A stretch of DNA of 64,000 bases, from NCBI GenBank assembly GCA_964539665.1, contig CAZIKB010000003.1, positions 60,062 through 124,061 on the forward strand. Reading direction: 5' to 3'. Made by a program: the position numbers. Numbering within the stretch: the first letter of the stretch is position 1; every line of letters starts with the position of its first letter. Below, piece by piece: positions 54,001 to 60,000 of this stretch. The DNA comes from an uncultured Cytophagia bacterium. Its GTDB lineage: Bacteria; Zhuqueibacterota; Zhuqueibacteria; Oceanimicrobiales; Oceanimicrobiaceae.

Positions 54001-57000
54001 TCGTAGCCTCGAAGGTGAAATAAAAAGTTTTGAAGGCCGTACATTAGTTCGTATTTTTAATAAATATTTAAACGGAAAAGAAGCGAAAATCCTTGAAGGA
54101 GGTTGCGGATTTGGTGCTTGGTGTGAGTGGTTCCAAAAACAGGGTTATCAAATATTAGGTATTGAATACGATAATAATATAGTAAAAAGAGCCAAAAAAT
54201 ATAAGCCAGATGTAGCCGTTGAATTAGGCGATATCACCGAAATAAAGTACCCGTCCGATAGCTTTGACGCTTATGTATCATTGGGAGTGATTGAACATTT
54301 TGAACATGGTCCAGAGTCTGCCCTGAGAGAAGCCCATCGAATTCTTAAACCAGATGGCATAGCCTTTGTAACTACGCCTTATTTAACAGTAATCCGAAGG
54401 TTTGTTGCTCATCCGGTTCGCAGCTTGTATTTTTTAATTCGAGAGTTTCGTGGAAAATCAAATTATTTTTGGGAATATCGGTTTACAAAAAATGAATTAC
54501 GTTCTTTTCTTGAGAATACTGGCTTTGAAATTATACATGCGGATATCGACGATTATGAGCATAGGATTAAGAATCGCCACATAGGTCTGTGGGCGGATTG
54601 GTTTTTTTTAAGAAGAAAAAATGGTGCAATCTGGGAGTTAAATGGTTTAGGAAAATTTGTGCTCAGAGTTGTCAATCTTTTTCCTGATTCCTGGTACTGC
54701 TCGGGTTTGCATCTGGTTGCAAGGGCAAAAAAGAACGATATCACTGAAAATAGTGAAATTACTAAATCCAAATAATTATAAAATATGAAAGGAATTACAT
54801 GGAATTAATCGCACCTCACGGTGGCAAACTTGTTGATCAGGTTTTACGTGGCGAAGAACGTGAAGCAGCTTTGAACAAAGCTAAGCATCTAAAAAAAATT
54901 GCAATCAACGCAACAGCAATTTCTGATGTAGAACTCATTGCAGTTGGTGCATTCAGCCCATTAACGGGATTTATGAAACAGGCTGATTATGAAAATGTAG
55001 TTACGAATATACGTTTAGCAAATGGCGTGGTCTGGTCGATACCAATAACTTTGTCAGTTACCAGTGAAATTGCTGATGAAGTTAAAATTGACGAAGAAAT
55101 TGTATTAACCAATGATGCCGGATTGCAATTAGCATTATTAAAAGTTGAGGAAAAGTTTACTTACGATAAAACCCGGGAAGCGGAATTTGTATATAAAACA
55201 ACCGAAGAAGCCCATCCTGGCGTTGCCCGGCTTTACAAGCAGGATGATGTGTTATTAGGTGGTGAGATTAGGCTAATCAATCGGGTGCCGGATCAACCAT
55301 TTCCGGATTTTCGACACGATCCTGTTCAGAGTCGGCGTATGTTTGCCAGTCGCGGTTGGAAAAAAATTGTAGGATTTCAAACTCGCAATCCAATACATCG
55401 TGCGCATGAATACATACAGAAATGTGCATTGGAAATTGTCGATGGTTTATTTTTACATCCATTAGTTGGGGAGACTAAAAAGGATGATATTCCCGCGGAT
55501 ATTCGCATGCAAAGTTATGAGAGCCTGCTGCGAGATTATTATCCGCCAAACCGTACACTTTTAGGGGTATATCCGGCCGCCATGCGCTATGCCGGTCCAA
55601 GAGAGGCTATTTTTCATGCGATTGCGCGAAAGAATTATGGCTGCAGCCATTTTATAGTCGGTCGAGACCATGCCGGGGTTGGTAATTATTATGGAACGTA
55701 TGATGCTCAAAAAATATTCGATGATTTCAAAAAGGAAGAAATAGATATCACACCTTTATTTTTTGATCATACATTTTATTGCAAAAAATGCGGTGCTATT
55801 GTTTCTGACAAAACCTGTCCGCATGATCAATCTGAGCGTTTGATATTAAGTGGCACTCAGGTTCGTGAAATGCTCACTCGCGGGGAAGCGCCACCACCAG
55901 AATTAACCCGCCCGGAAGTGGCGAGTATACTGATCGAAGGTTATCGCAAAGAAGGCAAATCAGTTCAACCAGAAAAAAAACCGGAAGCCAAAAGAGCACC
56001 AGCTAAATCCGAACCAAAGGCAGCGGTTGCAAGGGCGTCTAAAAATGGCAAGCGGAAAGTATTTGTCATCGGCCTTGATTGTGCCACACCCGAATTGATT
56101 TTTGACCAGTACAAATCGGAGCTTCCAAACTTTCGGAAATTAATGGAAAGCGGTCTTTACGGAGAATTAGAAAGCAGCATTCCGCCAATTACCGTTCCAG
56201 CCTGGTCGTCCATGATGAGCAGTAAAGATCCGGGGCAGTTGGGCTTTTACGACTTTCGTAATCGTGCAGATTACTCCTATGAAAGCATGTATATTGCCTC
56301 ATCCAGGTCAGTAAAAACGGATCGGGTCTGGGATATTCTCTCTCGTTCAGGAAAACAGGTATCGGTTGTGGGAGTGCCTCAAACCTATCCTATCCAGCCC
56401 GTTAAAGGAAACATGATTTCTTGCTTTCTGACTCCTTCTACTGAAAGCCAGTACACCTATCCTGAAGAACTTAAATCTGAAATCCAGGAGTTGGTGGGAG
56501 ACTACATGATTGATGTGCCTAATTTTAGAACCGAGAACAAGGATTTGCTTTTGCGGCAAATTTATGAAATGACCGAAAAGCGTTTTCGGCTTGTTCGCTA
56601 TCTAATGCGGAAAAAACCGTGGGACTTTTTTATGTTTGTCGAAATGGGTACAGATCGCATTCATCACGGATTCTGGAAGTATATGGATACCGGCCATAAA
56701 AAATATGAACCCGGTAATCCTTATGAAAACTCAATAAAGGAATATTATAAATATCTGGATCGGGAAATCGGCGAGGTACTTGATAACCTTGACGACGATA
56801 CATCCGTTTTGGTGGTTTCAGACCATGGCGCCAAAAAAATGGATGGCGGTATATGCATTAATGAATGGCTCATTGAAAATGGCTATCTTATTTTAAAAGA
56901 GAAACCGGCTTCACTTATGCCACTGGAGAAAGCAGAAATAGACTGGCCCAAAACGAAAGCATGGGGCGCTGGCGGATATTTTGGCCGAATTTTTCTTAAT

Positions 57001-60000
57001 GTCCGCGGCCGCGAACCTGAAGGCGCGGTTGCACCTGAAGAGTATGAAACCATTCGGAATGAATTGATTCATAAGCTGGAAAATATAAAGGACGAAAAAG
57101 GCCAGCCATTAACTACCAGAGTTATAAAGCCAAATGAGGTTTATAAGGAAGTAAACAATATTCCTCCGGATTTAATGGTCTATTTTGGTGATTTGAATTG
57201 GCGGTCGGTTGGCAGTGTCGGATTAAATCGAATACACACTTTTGATAAAGAGCTGGGACCTGATGATGCTAACCATTCTCAGCACGGTATTTTTGTCATG
57301 CATGATCCACAAAATCCTGCAAATGGCAAGAGAATTCACGGCATGCAATTGGTTGATGTTGCGCCAACTATTTTAGATTTATTTGGTGACGAAATTCCAA
57401 ATGATATGATCGGTAAAGTTATCAGGAACAAATAAGGCGTTAGAGGAAACACGCTGAGGATATTTGCCACACACTTCCAGGGTGTGTGGCAAATCCAATT
57501 TTAAATTAAAATCAATTAATTAGTTGTAATGATATAAATTTTATGGAGGTTTCAATTTTATGAAGACATCTAAAAAAGCATGTACAATTTGGTTCACGGG
57601 TTTACCTTCCTCTGGAAAATCTACTTTGGCGGAGATGCTGGAAAAGGAGTTAAAAAACCGCGGAGAAAGGGTCGAAATTTTAGATGGCGATGTAGTCCGT
57701 ACGAATTTAAGCAAAGGCTTGACCTTTAGTAAGGAAGATCGGGACATCAATATCCGGAGAATAGGATTTGTTTGTCATTTGTTGACAAGAAATGGTGTGT
57801 TCGCAATTTCTGCAGCAATATCTCCTTATAGAAATATACGAGATGAAAACCGTGCACTCATAGGCAACTTTGTCGAGGTTTTTGTTGATTGTCCACTGGA
57901 TGAATGTATTAAAAGAGATGTAAAAGGTCTTTATAAAAAAGCATTGGCCGGCGAAATAAAGGAATTTACCGGCGTTTCTGATCCTTATGAAGAACCTCTC
58001 AAACCTGAAATTGTGATTGACGCCCACGGAGAAGAACCCAAAGATAGCCTTCAAAAAATACTGGCGAGATTAGTAGAATTAGGTTACTTATCCAATAACG
58101 GTCTTGATACATCTGACAAAGCATATTCTGATGAAGAAGAAGAGGTAGTGAGAAAGCGGCTGAGTGATCTGGGCTATATTTAATGTTAAATATTTTTAAG
58201 AAAAATAAGGGATCAAAAGTATTTGTTCTGTCTATCGACGGTGTTCCCTTTTCATTTATGCAGGAAAACATAGAAAAGGGTCATTTTCCTAACTTCAAAC
58301 GTTTTTTGAATATGGGTGATTTTAAAAGGATGAATTCAGTGCAACCGGTGATATCATCGGTTGCCTGGTCCTCTTTTATGACAGGCAAGAATCCGGCTAA
58401 GCATAATATTTATGGATTTGTGGATCAAATGCCGGGTTCAAATAATGTATATATTCCTACTTCGCTCAACATGACCAGTAAAACCATTTGGGATATCATG
58501 AGTGAGGCTGGGAAAAAAGTGTTTGTGATGAATGTTCCTGTAACCTATCCACCACGCGCGGTAAATGGAATTATGATTGGCTGTTTCCTTTGCACTCAAA
58601 TTGAGAAAATAGCTTCCCCGCCTGCTATTTCTGCTGAATTAAAAAATATGGGCTATAAGATTGATGCAGACGCCTGGATCGCCCGTGAAAATTTAGACAA
58701 ATTCCTGGAGGAAGTAAATACTACCCTGGAAAAGCGAACCGAGGCTATGTTTCATTTTTTGGCAAAGGAAGATTGGGATTATTTTCACACCCACATCATG
58801 GAAACAGACCGGATAAATCACTTTTTATGGGAGCACATGGAACTCGATGAGCCGAAATATGCTAAAGCTTTTTTCCAATTTTATAAAAGGTTGGATGATA
58901 TTTTAGGTGAAGTTGAACAAAAAATCGGCGAAGACGCGGAATTTATAGTTCTGTCTGATCACGGTTTTTGTACTATTAAGAAAGAAATCTATCTCAATAA
59001 TTATTTGGAAGAAGCCGGTATATTGAAATTTAATAACTCTCAGCCGGAAAGTATCGCGGACATGCATGAAGATTCCACGGCCTACAGCTTGATTCCAGGC
59101 AGGGTATTTGTGAATCTAAATGGGCGCGAGCCGAACGGTTCGATATCGCCGGGGAATTATGAAAAGACCCGGGAAAAACTCACTGAGACGCTTCTTAATT
59201 TAAAGGAAAAAGACACCGGCGAATTTATTATCAAGGAAGTTATCAGGCGCGAAAATATCTACGAAGGTCAAAATATTGGCTCCGCAGCGGACTTAATTGC
59301 TGTTCCACATGATGGTTATGACTTGAAAGGGAACGTGAATAAAGAAGTGTTTGGTGAAAAGGGGGCGCTGGTCGGAATGCATACATTCGAAGATTCACTT
59401 TTATTTGTTCGAAATAAATCTTTGTTAAAACAGAATAATCAATTTTGGATCGGAGATTTGGCTCCAACTATTTTAAATATGATGAATATACCCATCCCAA
59501 ACGATATGGATGGAGTGGCATTAGTTTGAGTAATCTTTGCAGGAAAAAATGACCCAGAAATCACAAATCAATGTTCTTCAGGTTGTAGAGGGACTCAATT
59601 TAGGCGGGGCTGAAATTAAGCTTTTGGAGCTCATCGCCAACATGGATCGCAGCAGATTTAGAACGGTTGTGTGTAGTCTTGGAATGGGTGAAAGAATTAA
59701 AGAAAAAGTAACAGAATTAGATGTTAAATTTGTTAGTCTCGCGAGGAAAAGACGATTTGATCCAATGTTGATATGGAAAGTGGCCAAATTGATTCGTCAG
59801 GAAAATATTGATGTCGTGATGACTACGCTTTTTTATGCTGATGTTGTTGGCGCTTTTGCCCGGCTCTTCAGCCCGACTAAAGCTGTATTCTCCTGGGAAA
59901 CCATATCTGCTCCGGAATGGCTGCTAAAACACAGGCTTTTTGCTTATCGCTTTGCCATGCGATATTGCGATAATATCATTTCAGTTTCACAAGCAACGGC

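Follow-up and report, generated by a model that had tools for sequence, protein, structure and literature searches.

What does an ATP sulfurylase (Sat) do on the same polypeptide as an alkaline-phosphatase (AP)-superfamily domain, in a glycan cluster that carries genes for sulfate activation and no recognizable classical sulfotransferase? The question is raised by one ORF in the stretch of DNA analyzed here (64 kb, referred to as the window). Its preliminary description had placed both domains in a single polypeptide, with Sat motifs, a Lys/Pro/Ala-rich linker, and LGLD-type, SDHG and HD motifs; all of these were found in place.

Architecture and distribution of the fusion

54799..57435 (+): whole fusion ORF, consisting of Sat, linker and NPP-like AP-superfamily domain (ORF listing and Pfam)
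54808..55284 (+): PUA-like N-terminal domain of ATP sulfurylase, aa 4–162 (Pfam PF14306, 9.9e-57, 191 bits)
55306..55938 (+): ATP-sulfurylase catalytic domain, aa 170–380 (Pfam PF01747, 1.3e-97, 326 bits)
55948..56052 (+): inter-domain linker, Lys/Pro/Ala-rich, aa 384–418 (sequence and homologue alignment)
56053..57432 (+): NPP-like alkaline-phosphatase-superfamily domain, aa 419–878 (PF01663 match and motifs)

The ORF begins with ATG and encodes 878 aa in a single, uninterrupted frame, and Pfam recognized both halves (PUA_2, aa 4–162; ATP-sulfurylase, aa 170–380; Phosphodiest, PF01663, aa 421–810). Neither a TM segment nor a signal peptide was predicted anywhere in the 878 residues, and the protein is therefore predicted to be cytoplasmic. 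The linker is poorly conserved among homologues and contains an A8 homopolymer (55973–55980), that is, an indel-prone site; read at the nucleotide level, the junction is in frame. Two separate genes joined by an assembly or sequencing error were rejected as the source of the fusion, with next to no probability left for them, because the 120 best protein clusters (60–100% identity; from the independent NCBI, JGI, ENA and Logan assemblies) all have the identical three-domain architecture with differing linkers, as do genome loci L001–L005, KSB1 and TA06 genomes among them.

The Sat half scored well above curated cutoffs (NF003166, 584 bits, cutoff 387; TIGR00339, 457 bits, cutoff 323). It carries the motifs QxRNPxHxxH (aa 194–204, nt 55378–55410) and GRDHAG (aa 288–293, nt 55660–55677) as well as a CxxC…CPH cluster in the catalytic domain (nt 55780–55827), and the Sat motifs are almost invariant in an alignment of 46 fusion homologues. 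Judged by its sequence, the N-terminal half is a canonical ATP sulfurylase of the homo-oligomeric type, predicted to convert ATP and sulfate to APS and PPi.

The C-terminal half matched PF01663 (3.4e-48) and, marginally, the Sulfatase family (PF00884, 26.7 bits). All six metal ligands of the superfamily are kept (D427, D619, H623, D675, H676 and H826) and are invariant or nearly so in homologue alignments; the predicted nucleophile T465 (nt 56191–56193, in the motif spanning aa 462–471) aligns with Thr90 of Xac NPP, in the position expected for this branch at the start of the helix that follows strand 2. Characteristic motifs are VIGLDC (423–428), TDRIHH (618–623), VSDHGA (673–678) and ANHSQHG (824–830), joined by two family motifs, F486-R487-x-R489 and N-x-x-G-R738-E-P-x-G, of which R489 is at least 90% conserved in the wider family. 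In the profile alignment, the column of Xac N111 is occupied by F486; N488 lies close by and is not conserved in the wider family. Another feature of the domain is its cap, a large, conserved region of about 140 aa that is rich in Trp. A phmmer search of the domain against the PDB gave zero matches, and its closest folds are the NPP diesterases. It thus appears to be a remote member of the NPP branch with a complete two-metal site and T465 as its Thr nucleophile, and both halves of the fusion look catalytically competent.

The architecture is far from rare: MAGs and metagenomes from several phyla carry it. The objection that it might already be common and characterized thus holds in its first part but not in its second: no paper describing a Sat fused to an AP-superfamily domain was found in the literature, in agreement with the statement that known Sat fusions involve other partners, and the curated models (NCBIfam) name only the Sat half. 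Sat-AP is a genuine, widespread and unstudied bacterial gene. Domains related to the AP domain occur in further fusions, namely with APS kinase (CysC-AP), with pyruvate kinase plus Sat (AP-PK-Sat; P0183, P0204), with a MobA-like NTP_transf_3 nucleotidyltransferase (P0176) and with a GT2, whereas others adjoin sat or cysC as separate genes. The CysC-AP and AP-PK-Sat fusions, together with the conserved neighborhoods, are strong indications that the domain is functionally tied to the nucleotide activation of sulfate. The AP domain is conserved across phyla to the same degree as Sat and CysC (61%, 57% and 62%, respectively, in TA06 locus L005).

The glycan cluster and a shared C-terminal tail

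The window is a Wzx/Wzy-type glycan-biosynthesis cluster, in which sat and cysC are accompanied by seven genes of the AP superfamily; the organism that carries it is probably a relative of candidate division KSB1. The features relevant here are the following.

37249..38628 (+): soluble Sulfatase-family protein, 459 aa, Thr-type, tail ...AVERLKALGYLG (Pfam, motif)
43768..45645 (+): polytopic membrane Sulfatase-family protein, 625 aa, about 4 TM, Thr-type, tail ...AEKRLRALGYVK (Pfam, motif)
45855..47692 (+): second polytopic Sulfatase-family gene, tail ...IEKLKSLGYIK (Pfam, comparison)
48291..48590 (+): DUF2061 small membrane protein, 99 aa, tail ...EERLKELGYL, directly upstream of two exported AP paralogues
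48612..50795 (+): PF01663 paralogue, 727 aa, with N-terminal hydrophobic segment, membrane-anchored or exported (Pfam, alignment)
50788..52782 (+): PF01663 paralogue, 664 aa, signal/lipoprotein-like N-terminus (…SVFWGC) (Pfam, alignment)
52796..52987 (+): small ORF, 63 aa, with AAAGGAG ribosome-binding site and tail ...EEEVKKRLQGLGYLS, conserved in L001, L002 and L066
53939..54775 (+): SAM-dependent methyltransferase, 23 nt upstream of the fusion (Pfam)
57560..58183 (+): APS kinase CysC, 207 aa, with C-terminal extension (Pfam PF01583, 1.4e-61)
58183..59529 (+): cytoplasmic PF01663 paralogue, 448 aa, its start overlapping the cysC stop by 1 nt (Pfam)

The gene cysC starts 124 nt downstream of the fusion as a separate ORF, and its adjacency to the cytoplasmic paralogue is kept in L001 and L003–L007. 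The methyltransferase likewise lies directly upstream of the fusion in L001, L002, L081 and L090, and upstream of an unfused sat in L066. That three stand-alone COG1524 paralogues nearby share motifs with the fused domain was borne out: they are 30–32% identical to it with the same catalytic columns, and the nucleophile position is Thr or Ser in all four PF01663 proteins of the window. No Pfam match to classical sulfotransferases (PF00685, PF03567, PF13469 and relatives) was obtained for the fusion or any window ORF of at least 150 aa, nor were these families present among uncharacterized neighbors at E ≤ 1. A Sat-AP fusion in a cluster lacking an ordinary sulfotransferase may hint at a non-classical way of sulfating glycans.

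Two observations go beyond the preliminary description: the Thr-type sulfatase-family proteins, and a tail that links CysC to them. In the soluble protein, Thr replaces the Cys/Ser of the CxPxR motif, and all three Thr-type proteins resemble archaeal AP-fold sulfotransferases. The second polytopic gene probably carries a frameshift, because its annotated ORF ends at 47513 and the C-terminus, including the tail, continues in another frame (47483–47692), as Sulf_43768 and the homologue in L066 indicate. The tail (consensus …EEEE-x-h-x-x-RL-x-x-LGY[ILM]) is common to CysC (nt 58121–58180), the sulfatase-like proteins, the DUF2061 protein and the small regulator-like ORF, whose N-terminus may be ribbon-helix-helix-like, as weakly suggested by PF01402 matches (E = 0.017–0.03) on homologous small ORFs. 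It is also found in CysC of L001–L007, L061, L065, L081 and L084, and in L061 a tail-bearing DUF2061 gene sits between cysC and the AP gene.

Possible functions of the AP domain

The preliminary description had concluded that the fusion would channel substrate from APS formation to a hydrolyzing or transferring step. We tentatively favor transfer, as the leading reading but one more likely wrong than right: the AP domain may move sulfuryl groups from APS or PAPS via a sulfo-Thr465 intermediate. The fusion would then be a cytoplasmic bifunctional enzyme, central to a module dedicated to sulfate activation and sulfation. T465 would attack the sulfur of APS (from the fused Sat) or of PAPS (supplied by the downstream-encoded CysC), yielding a covalent sulfo-threonyl enzyme and AMP or PAP, and the sulfuryl group would pass to a conserved acceptor hydroxyl, for example, on a sugar of the lipid-linked repeat unit or on a nucleotide sugar. 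Such ping-pong chemistry would parallel that of EptA, LtaS and other AP-superfamily transferases acting on phospho-groups. Fusion to Sat would hand the thermodynamically scarce APS straight to the AP domain, and the acidic tails on CysC and the Thr-type sulfatase-like proteins may dock these partners on it to form a sulfation complex.

Several facts speak against sulfuryl transfer. It has no direct precedent among NPP-branch enzymes (Agl30/31 being members of the sulfatase branch), and the position of Asn111 in NPP does not appear to be conserved. The three Thr-type sulfatase-family proteins could themselves be the sulfotransferases, and the argument from a missing enzyme is therefore not specific to the fused domain. 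Conservation equal to that of Sat and CysC would be unusual for an enzyme recognizing variable glycans; the fusions in L089 and L091 have neither cysC nor any glycan gene within 10 kb, and the MobA-like fusion lies in a phosphonate cluster (L087) that already has LicD. A broader form of the proposal, which we regard as doubtful, is that glycan sulfation in these bacteria and archaea relies wholly on AP-fold enzymes (Sat-fused NPP-like and Thr-type sulfatase-like), with the tail acting as a tag that docks APS kinase, transferases, the DUF2061 membrane anchor and the small RHH-like regulator on the AP domain. At its most daring, this proposal would have the AP domain sulfate the tag's invariant Tyr, which would then serve as an aryl-sulfate carrier for arylsulfatase-fold transferases.

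The main rival, unlikely but to be reckoned with, is a tethered pyrophosphatase or other by-product-removing hydrolase, which would pull the unfavorable formation of APS by Sat through removal of PPi. It would explain why the partners of the domain, fused or neighboring, include three unrelated nucleotidyltransferases that release PPi, namely Sat, the MobA-like protein and a CTP_transf_like protein whose gene adjoins the AP gene in Thermoprotei locus L078. Pyrophosphatase and pyruvate kinase are the usual helpers beside Sat and APS kinase in PAPS synthesis in vitro, and the AP-PK-Sat fusions point the same way. The degree of conservation suits an invariant small substrate, Sat-AP occurs in non-glycan contexts (L089 and L091, or L084 and L088 with cysC only), and the conserved Arg487, Arg489, Arg620 and Arg738 could bind a highly charged substrate. 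However, we know of no dedicated pyrophosphatase in the NPP branch, whose members produce PPi and do not cleave it; no pyrophosphatase family (I/II) was among the Pfam matches to the fusion, so that the analogy is functional only. The cap would be superfluous for a pyrophosphatase, and neither the AP-GT2 fusion nor stand-alone orthologues in clusters without a nearby nucleotidyltransferase fit. Furthermore, the exported paralogues with the same family motifs cannot reach the cytoplasmic PPi pool.

The domain could also be mainly a scaffold or receptor for the tail, assembling or regulating CysC, the Thr-type sulfatase-like transferases (then the real sulfotransferases), the DUF2061 anchor and the RHH-like regulator, with its catalysis secondary or regulatory; we hold this to be rather improbable. 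Every one of these partner classes has tail-bearing members (48 ORFs, compared with 1 in a reversed control). The tail is absent from 120/120 Sat-AP fusions examined, but among the 150 closest AP-domain representatives, 21 end in it, stand-alone orthologues included. Eubacteriales MAGs and Thermoprotei have small tail-bearing ORFs immediately 5′ of their stand-alone AP genes. In the AF2 model of an AP-domain orthologue, the tail helix, preceded by a disordered linker, has a pLDDT of 85–94, a confidence that would fit docking, although this is one monomer prediction. Strict conservation of the catalytic residues argues for real catalysis, and L066, L075 and L079 encode tail-bearing proteins with no tail-less cytoplasmic AP domain seen there. 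The tail suggests a new protein-targeting signal in sulfate-activation and sulfation pathways. Least probable of the enzymatic functions, and hard to credit, is a CysQ-like PAP phosphatase or other nucleotide-recycling enzyme clearing the inhibitory sulfotransferase product, perhaps returning AMP/ADP to ATP together with pyruvate kinase: L081 and L085 have their own candidates (Inositol_P, PHP) adjoining the fusion, the nearest folds are diesterases rather than monoesterases, and it would stay unexplained why the domain is fused to a nucleotidyltransferase in a phosphonate cluster that lacks PAPS genes.

Sulfated glycans are increasingly recognized in bacteria and archaea, and many producer clusters lack a recognizable sulfotransferase. 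Known AP-fold sulfotransferases are so far limited to Agl30/31 (2025). The fusion offers a testable handle, a single recombinant protein making its own APS with one predicted nucleophile. Sulfuryl transfer, if correct, would define a new class of sulfotransferases and open a way to enzymatic sulfation that spares PAPS; a tethered pyrophosphatase would be a new means of overcoming the unfavorable thermodynamics of activating sulfate. In both cases, a functional context would become available for about 15,000 protein clusters of the "alkaline phosphatase family".

Comparison with known systems

In the bifunctional PAPS synthase (Sat-APS kinase, NF004040), Sat, with the same fold and motifs as here, is likewise joined covalently to the next enzyme using its scarce product. 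In contrast, the partner here is an NPP-like AP domain instead of a P-loop kinase, and APS kinase is encoded by a separate downstream gene; accordingly, NF004040 matched only the Sat part (339.8 bits, cutoff 669). Some eukaryotes have fusions of APS kinase, ATP sulfurylase and pyrophosphatase, the latter a family I inorganic pyrophosphatase domain. These share the logic of joining Sat to a hydrolase that could remove PPi, and a tethered pyrophosphatase would be their non-homologous analogue, whereas the AP domain is predicted to be an unrelated two-metal enzyme of the AP fold with a Thr nucleophile.

The NPPs (Xanthomonas NPP and ENPP1/3/4/5/6/7) are the best structural matches and have the identical set of metal ligands and Thr nucleophile. 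The AP domain is only 13–16% identical to them, is predicted to be cytoplasmic rather than secreted, has the extra cap, and carries the F-R-x-R motif where the profile alignment places Asn111. For the proposed transfer, EptA/MCR-1 and LtaS may serve as templates, in which a covalent Thr-linked intermediate transfers an anionic group to a glycan or lipid acceptor instead of losing it by hydrolysis. A parallel for the cluster, and the 2025 precedent for the favored reading, is provided by Agl30 and Agl31, N-glycan sulfotransferases of the AP-like-core superfamily in Halobacterium salinarum, one membrane-bound and one soluble, from a glycan-assembly cluster without a classical sulfotransferase (PMC11980604). 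The sulfatase-family proteins of the window also include membrane and soluble forms, and the fused domain is likewise an AP-like-core protein encoded in a glycan-assembly cluster; unlike Agl30/Agl31, which are closest to S1 sulfatases, it is not sulfatase-like in sequence or structure.

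Architecture and distribution of the fusion

The preliminary description had claimed that an ATP sulfurylase (Sat) and an alkaline-phosphatase-superfamily (AP) domain are joined in one polypeptide. This was borne out by the ORF listing and the Pfam assignments:

54799..57435, + strand: single unbroken ORF, 878 aa
aa 4-162: PUA_2 (1e-56)
aa 170-380: ATP-sulfurylase (1.3e-97)
aa 384-418: Lys/Pro/Ala-rich linker including an A8 run, in frame at the nucleotide level
aa 421-810: Phosphodiest (PF01663; 3.4e-48), in the AP domain (aa 419-878)

The Sat half was named sulfate adenylyltransferase by NCBIfam (NF003166, 584 bits against a cutoff of 387); no NCBIfam model matched the AP half or the AP paralogues. 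All motifs quoted earlier were found in their places, and the three nearby paralogues ascribed to COG1524 are real (48612..50795, 50788..52782, and 58183..59529), with 30-32% identity to the fused AP domain. A search of 5.8 billion proteins was used to determine how widespread the architecture is. Its best 120 clusters (60-100% identity, 832-887 aa) contained PUA_2, ATP-sulfurylase, and Phosphodiest in 120 of 120 cases, labeled, if at all, just “ATP sulfurylase” or “sulfate adenylyltransferase” (e.g., in Anaerolineae MAGs). Among species-representative genomes, the fusion was present in a candidate division KSB1 MAG (L001; 77% identity, gene order as in the window), in MAGs L002-L004, and in a TA06 MAG (L005). 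Accordingly, the organism behind the window is probably related to KSB1. The in-frame junction and the recurrence of the architecture in the 120 clusters and in other genomes rule out an assembly or frameshift artefact; the fusion is real. As two closely related clusters (L006 and L066, the latter from Calditrichaceae) carry an unfused Sat without AP domain, the fusion was gained or lost inside one cluster type. Of the refuting condition named earlier, an architecture already common and characterized, only the first half applied: it is common in uncultivated lineages, yet uncharacterized. Literature searches (COG1524, DUF2061, Sat with alkaline phosphatase, sulfatase-like sulfotransferase) turned up no paper on a Sat-AP fusion, the only relevant study being that of Agl30 and Agl31, N-glycan sulfotransferases of Halobacterium salinarum.

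The AP domain is predicted to be cytoplasmic, no TM segment and no signal peptide being found in it. Its catalytic site is intact: alignments with the window paralogues, 46 fusion homologues, and 65 diverse stand-alone orthologues showed the full two-metal site (D427, D619/H623, D675/H676, and H826) and the predicted Thr nucleophile T465, within P-P-I-T-V-P-A-W-S, to be conserved. Probing the PDB with the AP half by phmmer gave no match at E <= 0.01; Xanthomonas NPP was reached only with the family profile (E = 7e-9), T465 aligning to the NPP nucleophile Thr90. The AlphaFold model of the domain (pLDDT 94.5, pTM 0.93) was matched by Foldseek to ENPP1/3/5/6, Xac NPP, and phosphonoacetate hydrolase (E about 1e-17 to 1e-15, 13-16% identity). 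Together with the profile alignment, these matches identify the AP domain as a remote member of the NPP branch. It differs from NPP by an additional conserved Trp-rich cap (approximately AP-domain residues 260-400) and by an F-R-x-R motif occupying the position of NPP Asn111.

Genomic context of the AP domain

An exhaustive search over 1.84 billion representatives, queried with just the AP domain, yielded 15,254 relatives (3,800 at E <= 1e-30), mostly stand-alone proteins of about 460 aa. Fusions among the closest 150 were APS_kinase + AP (P0132), AP + pyruvate-kinase (PK) barrel + PUA_2 + ATP-sulfurylase (P0183), AP + PK (P0204), a MobA-like NTP_transferase + AP (P0176), and AP + GT2 (P0156), the latter found in Elusimicrobiota according to cluster membership. 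The AP-PK-Sat fusion (L085) lies inside a glycan cluster, with a PHP phosphoesterase gene downstream and no APS kinase within 10 kb; the NTP_transferase-AP fusion (L087) belongs to a phosphonate-glycan cluster that also encodes PEP mutase and LicD. In 3 of ∼24 loci of unfused orthologues retrieved via AP-half peptides (L007, L061, and L065), sat and/or cysC was located within 10 kb, compared with a chance proximity for a random gene of ∼0.5%, which is a rough estimate and not a computed value. These independent fusions and neighborhoods are evidence that the AP domain belongs to the nucleotide activation of sulfate.

The window reads as a glycan biosynthesis cluster. All its ORFs of at least 150 aa are on the + strand, except one 185-aa minus-strand ORF nested in carB. 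Pfam assignments comprise methyltransferases, epimerases/dehydratases, GT2 and GT4 enzymes, two Wzx flippases, one Wzy polymerase, two PMT_2 GT-C proteins, carA/carB, two carbamoyltransferases, a GH39 protein, three Sulfatase-family and four Phosphodiest-family proteins, Sat-AP, and CysC. Around the fusion, genes stand close together, with the following spacing:

Methyltransferase (MTase) to fusion: 23 nt
Fusion to cysC: 124 nt
cysC and AP paralogue: 1 nt overlap
AP paralogue to GT4: 7 nt

A promoter/terminator scan of 52.7-60.8 kb gave no surplus over shuffled sequences and was uninformative on operon boundaries. The 124-nt spacer contains a strong hairpin (57458-57496) whose 12-bp inverted repeat is perfect, TTTGCCACACAC…GTGTGTGGCAAA (MFE -25.7 kcal/mol, z = -5.5, equaled by 0/200 shuffles), and which is followed by an A/T-rich stretch; this hairpin may act as an attenuator or operator, or as a site of processing. 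A 276-aa membrane protein with about three TM segments (53039-53869), lacking any Pfam or NCBIfam match, is kept beside the MTase or AP paralogues in L001, L002, L066, and, with 33% identity, Dadabacteria L008. The presence of carA and carB in the cluster with two NodU/CmcH-type carbamoyltransferases (21552-27620 and 33947-35746) implies a dedicated supply of carbamoyl phosphate for O-carbamoylation, and that the polymer(s) so modified are the same as those methylated and, probably, sulfated. Two Wzx-type flippases (17172-18608 and 35762-37219) and two PMT_2 GT-C proteins (18699-20384 and 30786-32477) in one co-directional 64-kb array suggest two adjacent glycan pathways or a single, unusually elaborate one.

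The genomic setting of the fusion varies between loci. The order MTase, Sat-AP, CysC is repeated in L001, L002, L081, and L090, and also in L066, where Sat is unfused. In L084 and L088, cysC is the fusion's only companion; in L089 and L091, an ECF sigma/anti-sigma pair precedes the fusion, and cysC and glycan genes are absent nearby.

A hidden classical sulfotransferase was considered and rejected. The domain scan detected none in any window ORF of at least 150 aa, and none was seen by eye among the ORFs of two unannotated gaps, at 27.5-30.9 and 47.4-48.7 kb (with a Pfam scan for the 99-aa ORF only). Classical sulfotransferases were likewise absent from the 10-kb surroundings of the fusion in eight other contexts (L081, L082, L084, L085, and L088-L091), and the unannotated neighbors in L081, L082, and L084 gave no sulfotransferase match at E <= 1. 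The window's three Sulfatase-family proteins (PF00884; 37249-38628, 43768-45645, and 45855-47513) lack the CxPxR formylglycine motif. Because Thr replaces its Cys/Ser at the nucleophile column, as in the phospho-group transferases EptA and LtaS and unlike the canonical C-V-P-A-R of a Poribacteria homologue (L009), they appear to be of the transferase type rather than true sulfatases, and are plausible candidate sulfotransferases. The second membrane gene of this family (45855-47692) seems frameshifted: its ORF ends at 47513, with the break near 47483-47513, and the conserved C-terminus (…GELYNLEIDPGE…KLKSLGYIK), matching the 43768-45645 protein and the L066 homologue, runs on in another frame. 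Either the gene is a pseudogene, or a short homopolymer was misread in sequencing.

A shared C-terminal tail

CysC and other, unrelated proteins of these systems end in a conserved acidic segment with the consensus …[YF][ST]xEEEE-x-h-x-x-[RK]L-x-x-[LM]GY[ILMV] plus 0-2 residues, the Tyr of which was invariant in every example inspected. Across all fetched loci, 48 ORFs end in [RKQ][LIMF]x2-3[LM]G[YF][ILVMF]x0-2, versus 1 in the reversed-sequence control (32 versus 0 with a stricter pattern). Six carriers are in the window:

58121-58180: tail of CysC
48531-48587: tail of the DUF2061 ORF 48291..48590 (...EERLKELGYL)
38580-38625: tail of 37249..38628
45595-45642: tail of 43768..45645
47640-47689: tail of the 45855 gene, at its frameshifted end
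52940-52984: tail of 52796..52987

Tail-bearing loci are L001-L008, L017-L019, L023-L027, L032, L061, L065, L066, L073, L075, L078, L079, L081-L087, and L090. The tail is carried by CysC in 14 loci, by AP-family paralogues in TA06, Eremiobacterota, Planctomycetota, and L090, by sulfatase-family proteins of both the soluble and the membrane kind, by DUF2061 proteins, and by small ribbon-helix-helix (RHH)-like ORFs directly upstream of stand-alone AP genes (L017-L019, L073, and L078) or sat (L075 and L079), Pfam support for RHH being sub-threshold. “Tail-only” mini-ORFs, 38 and 44 aa long, directly precede soluble sulfatase-family genes (L085 5478-5594 and L087 3015-3149). The tail terminates 21 of the 150 closest AP-domain representatives and 0 of 120 Sat-AP fusions. 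It is a conserved C-terminal tag that would connect components of Sat/CysC/AP systems. In the AlphaFold model of a tail-bearing AP orthologue (P0151), a disordered linker (pLDDT about 40) leads to a tail helix (85-94), which would fit the tail packing on the AP body.

The AP-PK-Sat fusion (L085 7459-10914) has an internal tail-like motif, …ILNQLKEMGYID, at its PK-to-Sat junction. The DUF2061 small membrane protein (Pfam 1.8e-18) is encoded directly upstream of two exported AP paralogues, and in a Planctomycetia contig (L061 984-1259), a gene for DUF2061 with tail lies between cysC and an AP gene; no function of DUF2061 was found in the literature. The unannotated 63-aa ORF 52796-52987 (RBS AAAGGAG), conserved in L001, L002, and L066, combines an N-terminus that by pattern resembles RHH with the tail, and its product may be a regulator. 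Comparable small ORFs directly precede stand-alone AP genes or sat in other phyla.

Possible roles of the AP domain

Sat-AP is best filed as an AP-superfamily enzyme linked to sulfate activation; what the AP domain would act on, and the direction of group transfer, we infer. Tentatively, and at somewhat less than an even chance, it would perform sulfuryl transfer, because no classical sulfotransferase is present and the fused domain is the sole AP-fold candidate in L081. The paralogue arrays of the family and the AP-GT2 fusion, the stand-alone orthologues in glycan clusters and the fusion to CysC, and the existence of an AP-fold precedent point the same way, as does the large conserved cap, which suggests a complex substrate. 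The window, though, holds further sulfotransferase candidates, and the Sat-AP fusion also occurs outside glycan contexts. Both observations favor a tethered pyrophosphatase, a possibility to be taken seriously even if rather unlikely. Three unrelated nucleotidyltransferases that release PPi occur fused to or beside members of the AP subfamily, which is also fused to pyruvate kinase; pyrophosphatase and pyruvate kinase are the helper enzymes usually added in PAPS synthesis in vitro. Moreover, the AP domain is as conserved as Sat and CysC (61/57/62% to TA06). That it serves as a scaffold or receptor is improbable, and a PAP phosphatase is less probable still, since CysQ-like and PHP genes adjoin the fusion elsewhere; other readings share the remainder.

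As for the precedent behind sulfuryl transfer, the membrane protein Agl30 and the soluble Agl31 were assigned as sulfotransferases by deletion and by expression in Haloferax volcanii, leaving donor and mechanism undefined (2025 study; PMC11980604). The window's three Sulfatase-family proteins, two polytopic and one soluble, resemble this pair. The Sat-AP branch differs from that of these only characterized AP-fold sulfotransferases, and its AP enzyme is unique in being fused to Sat.
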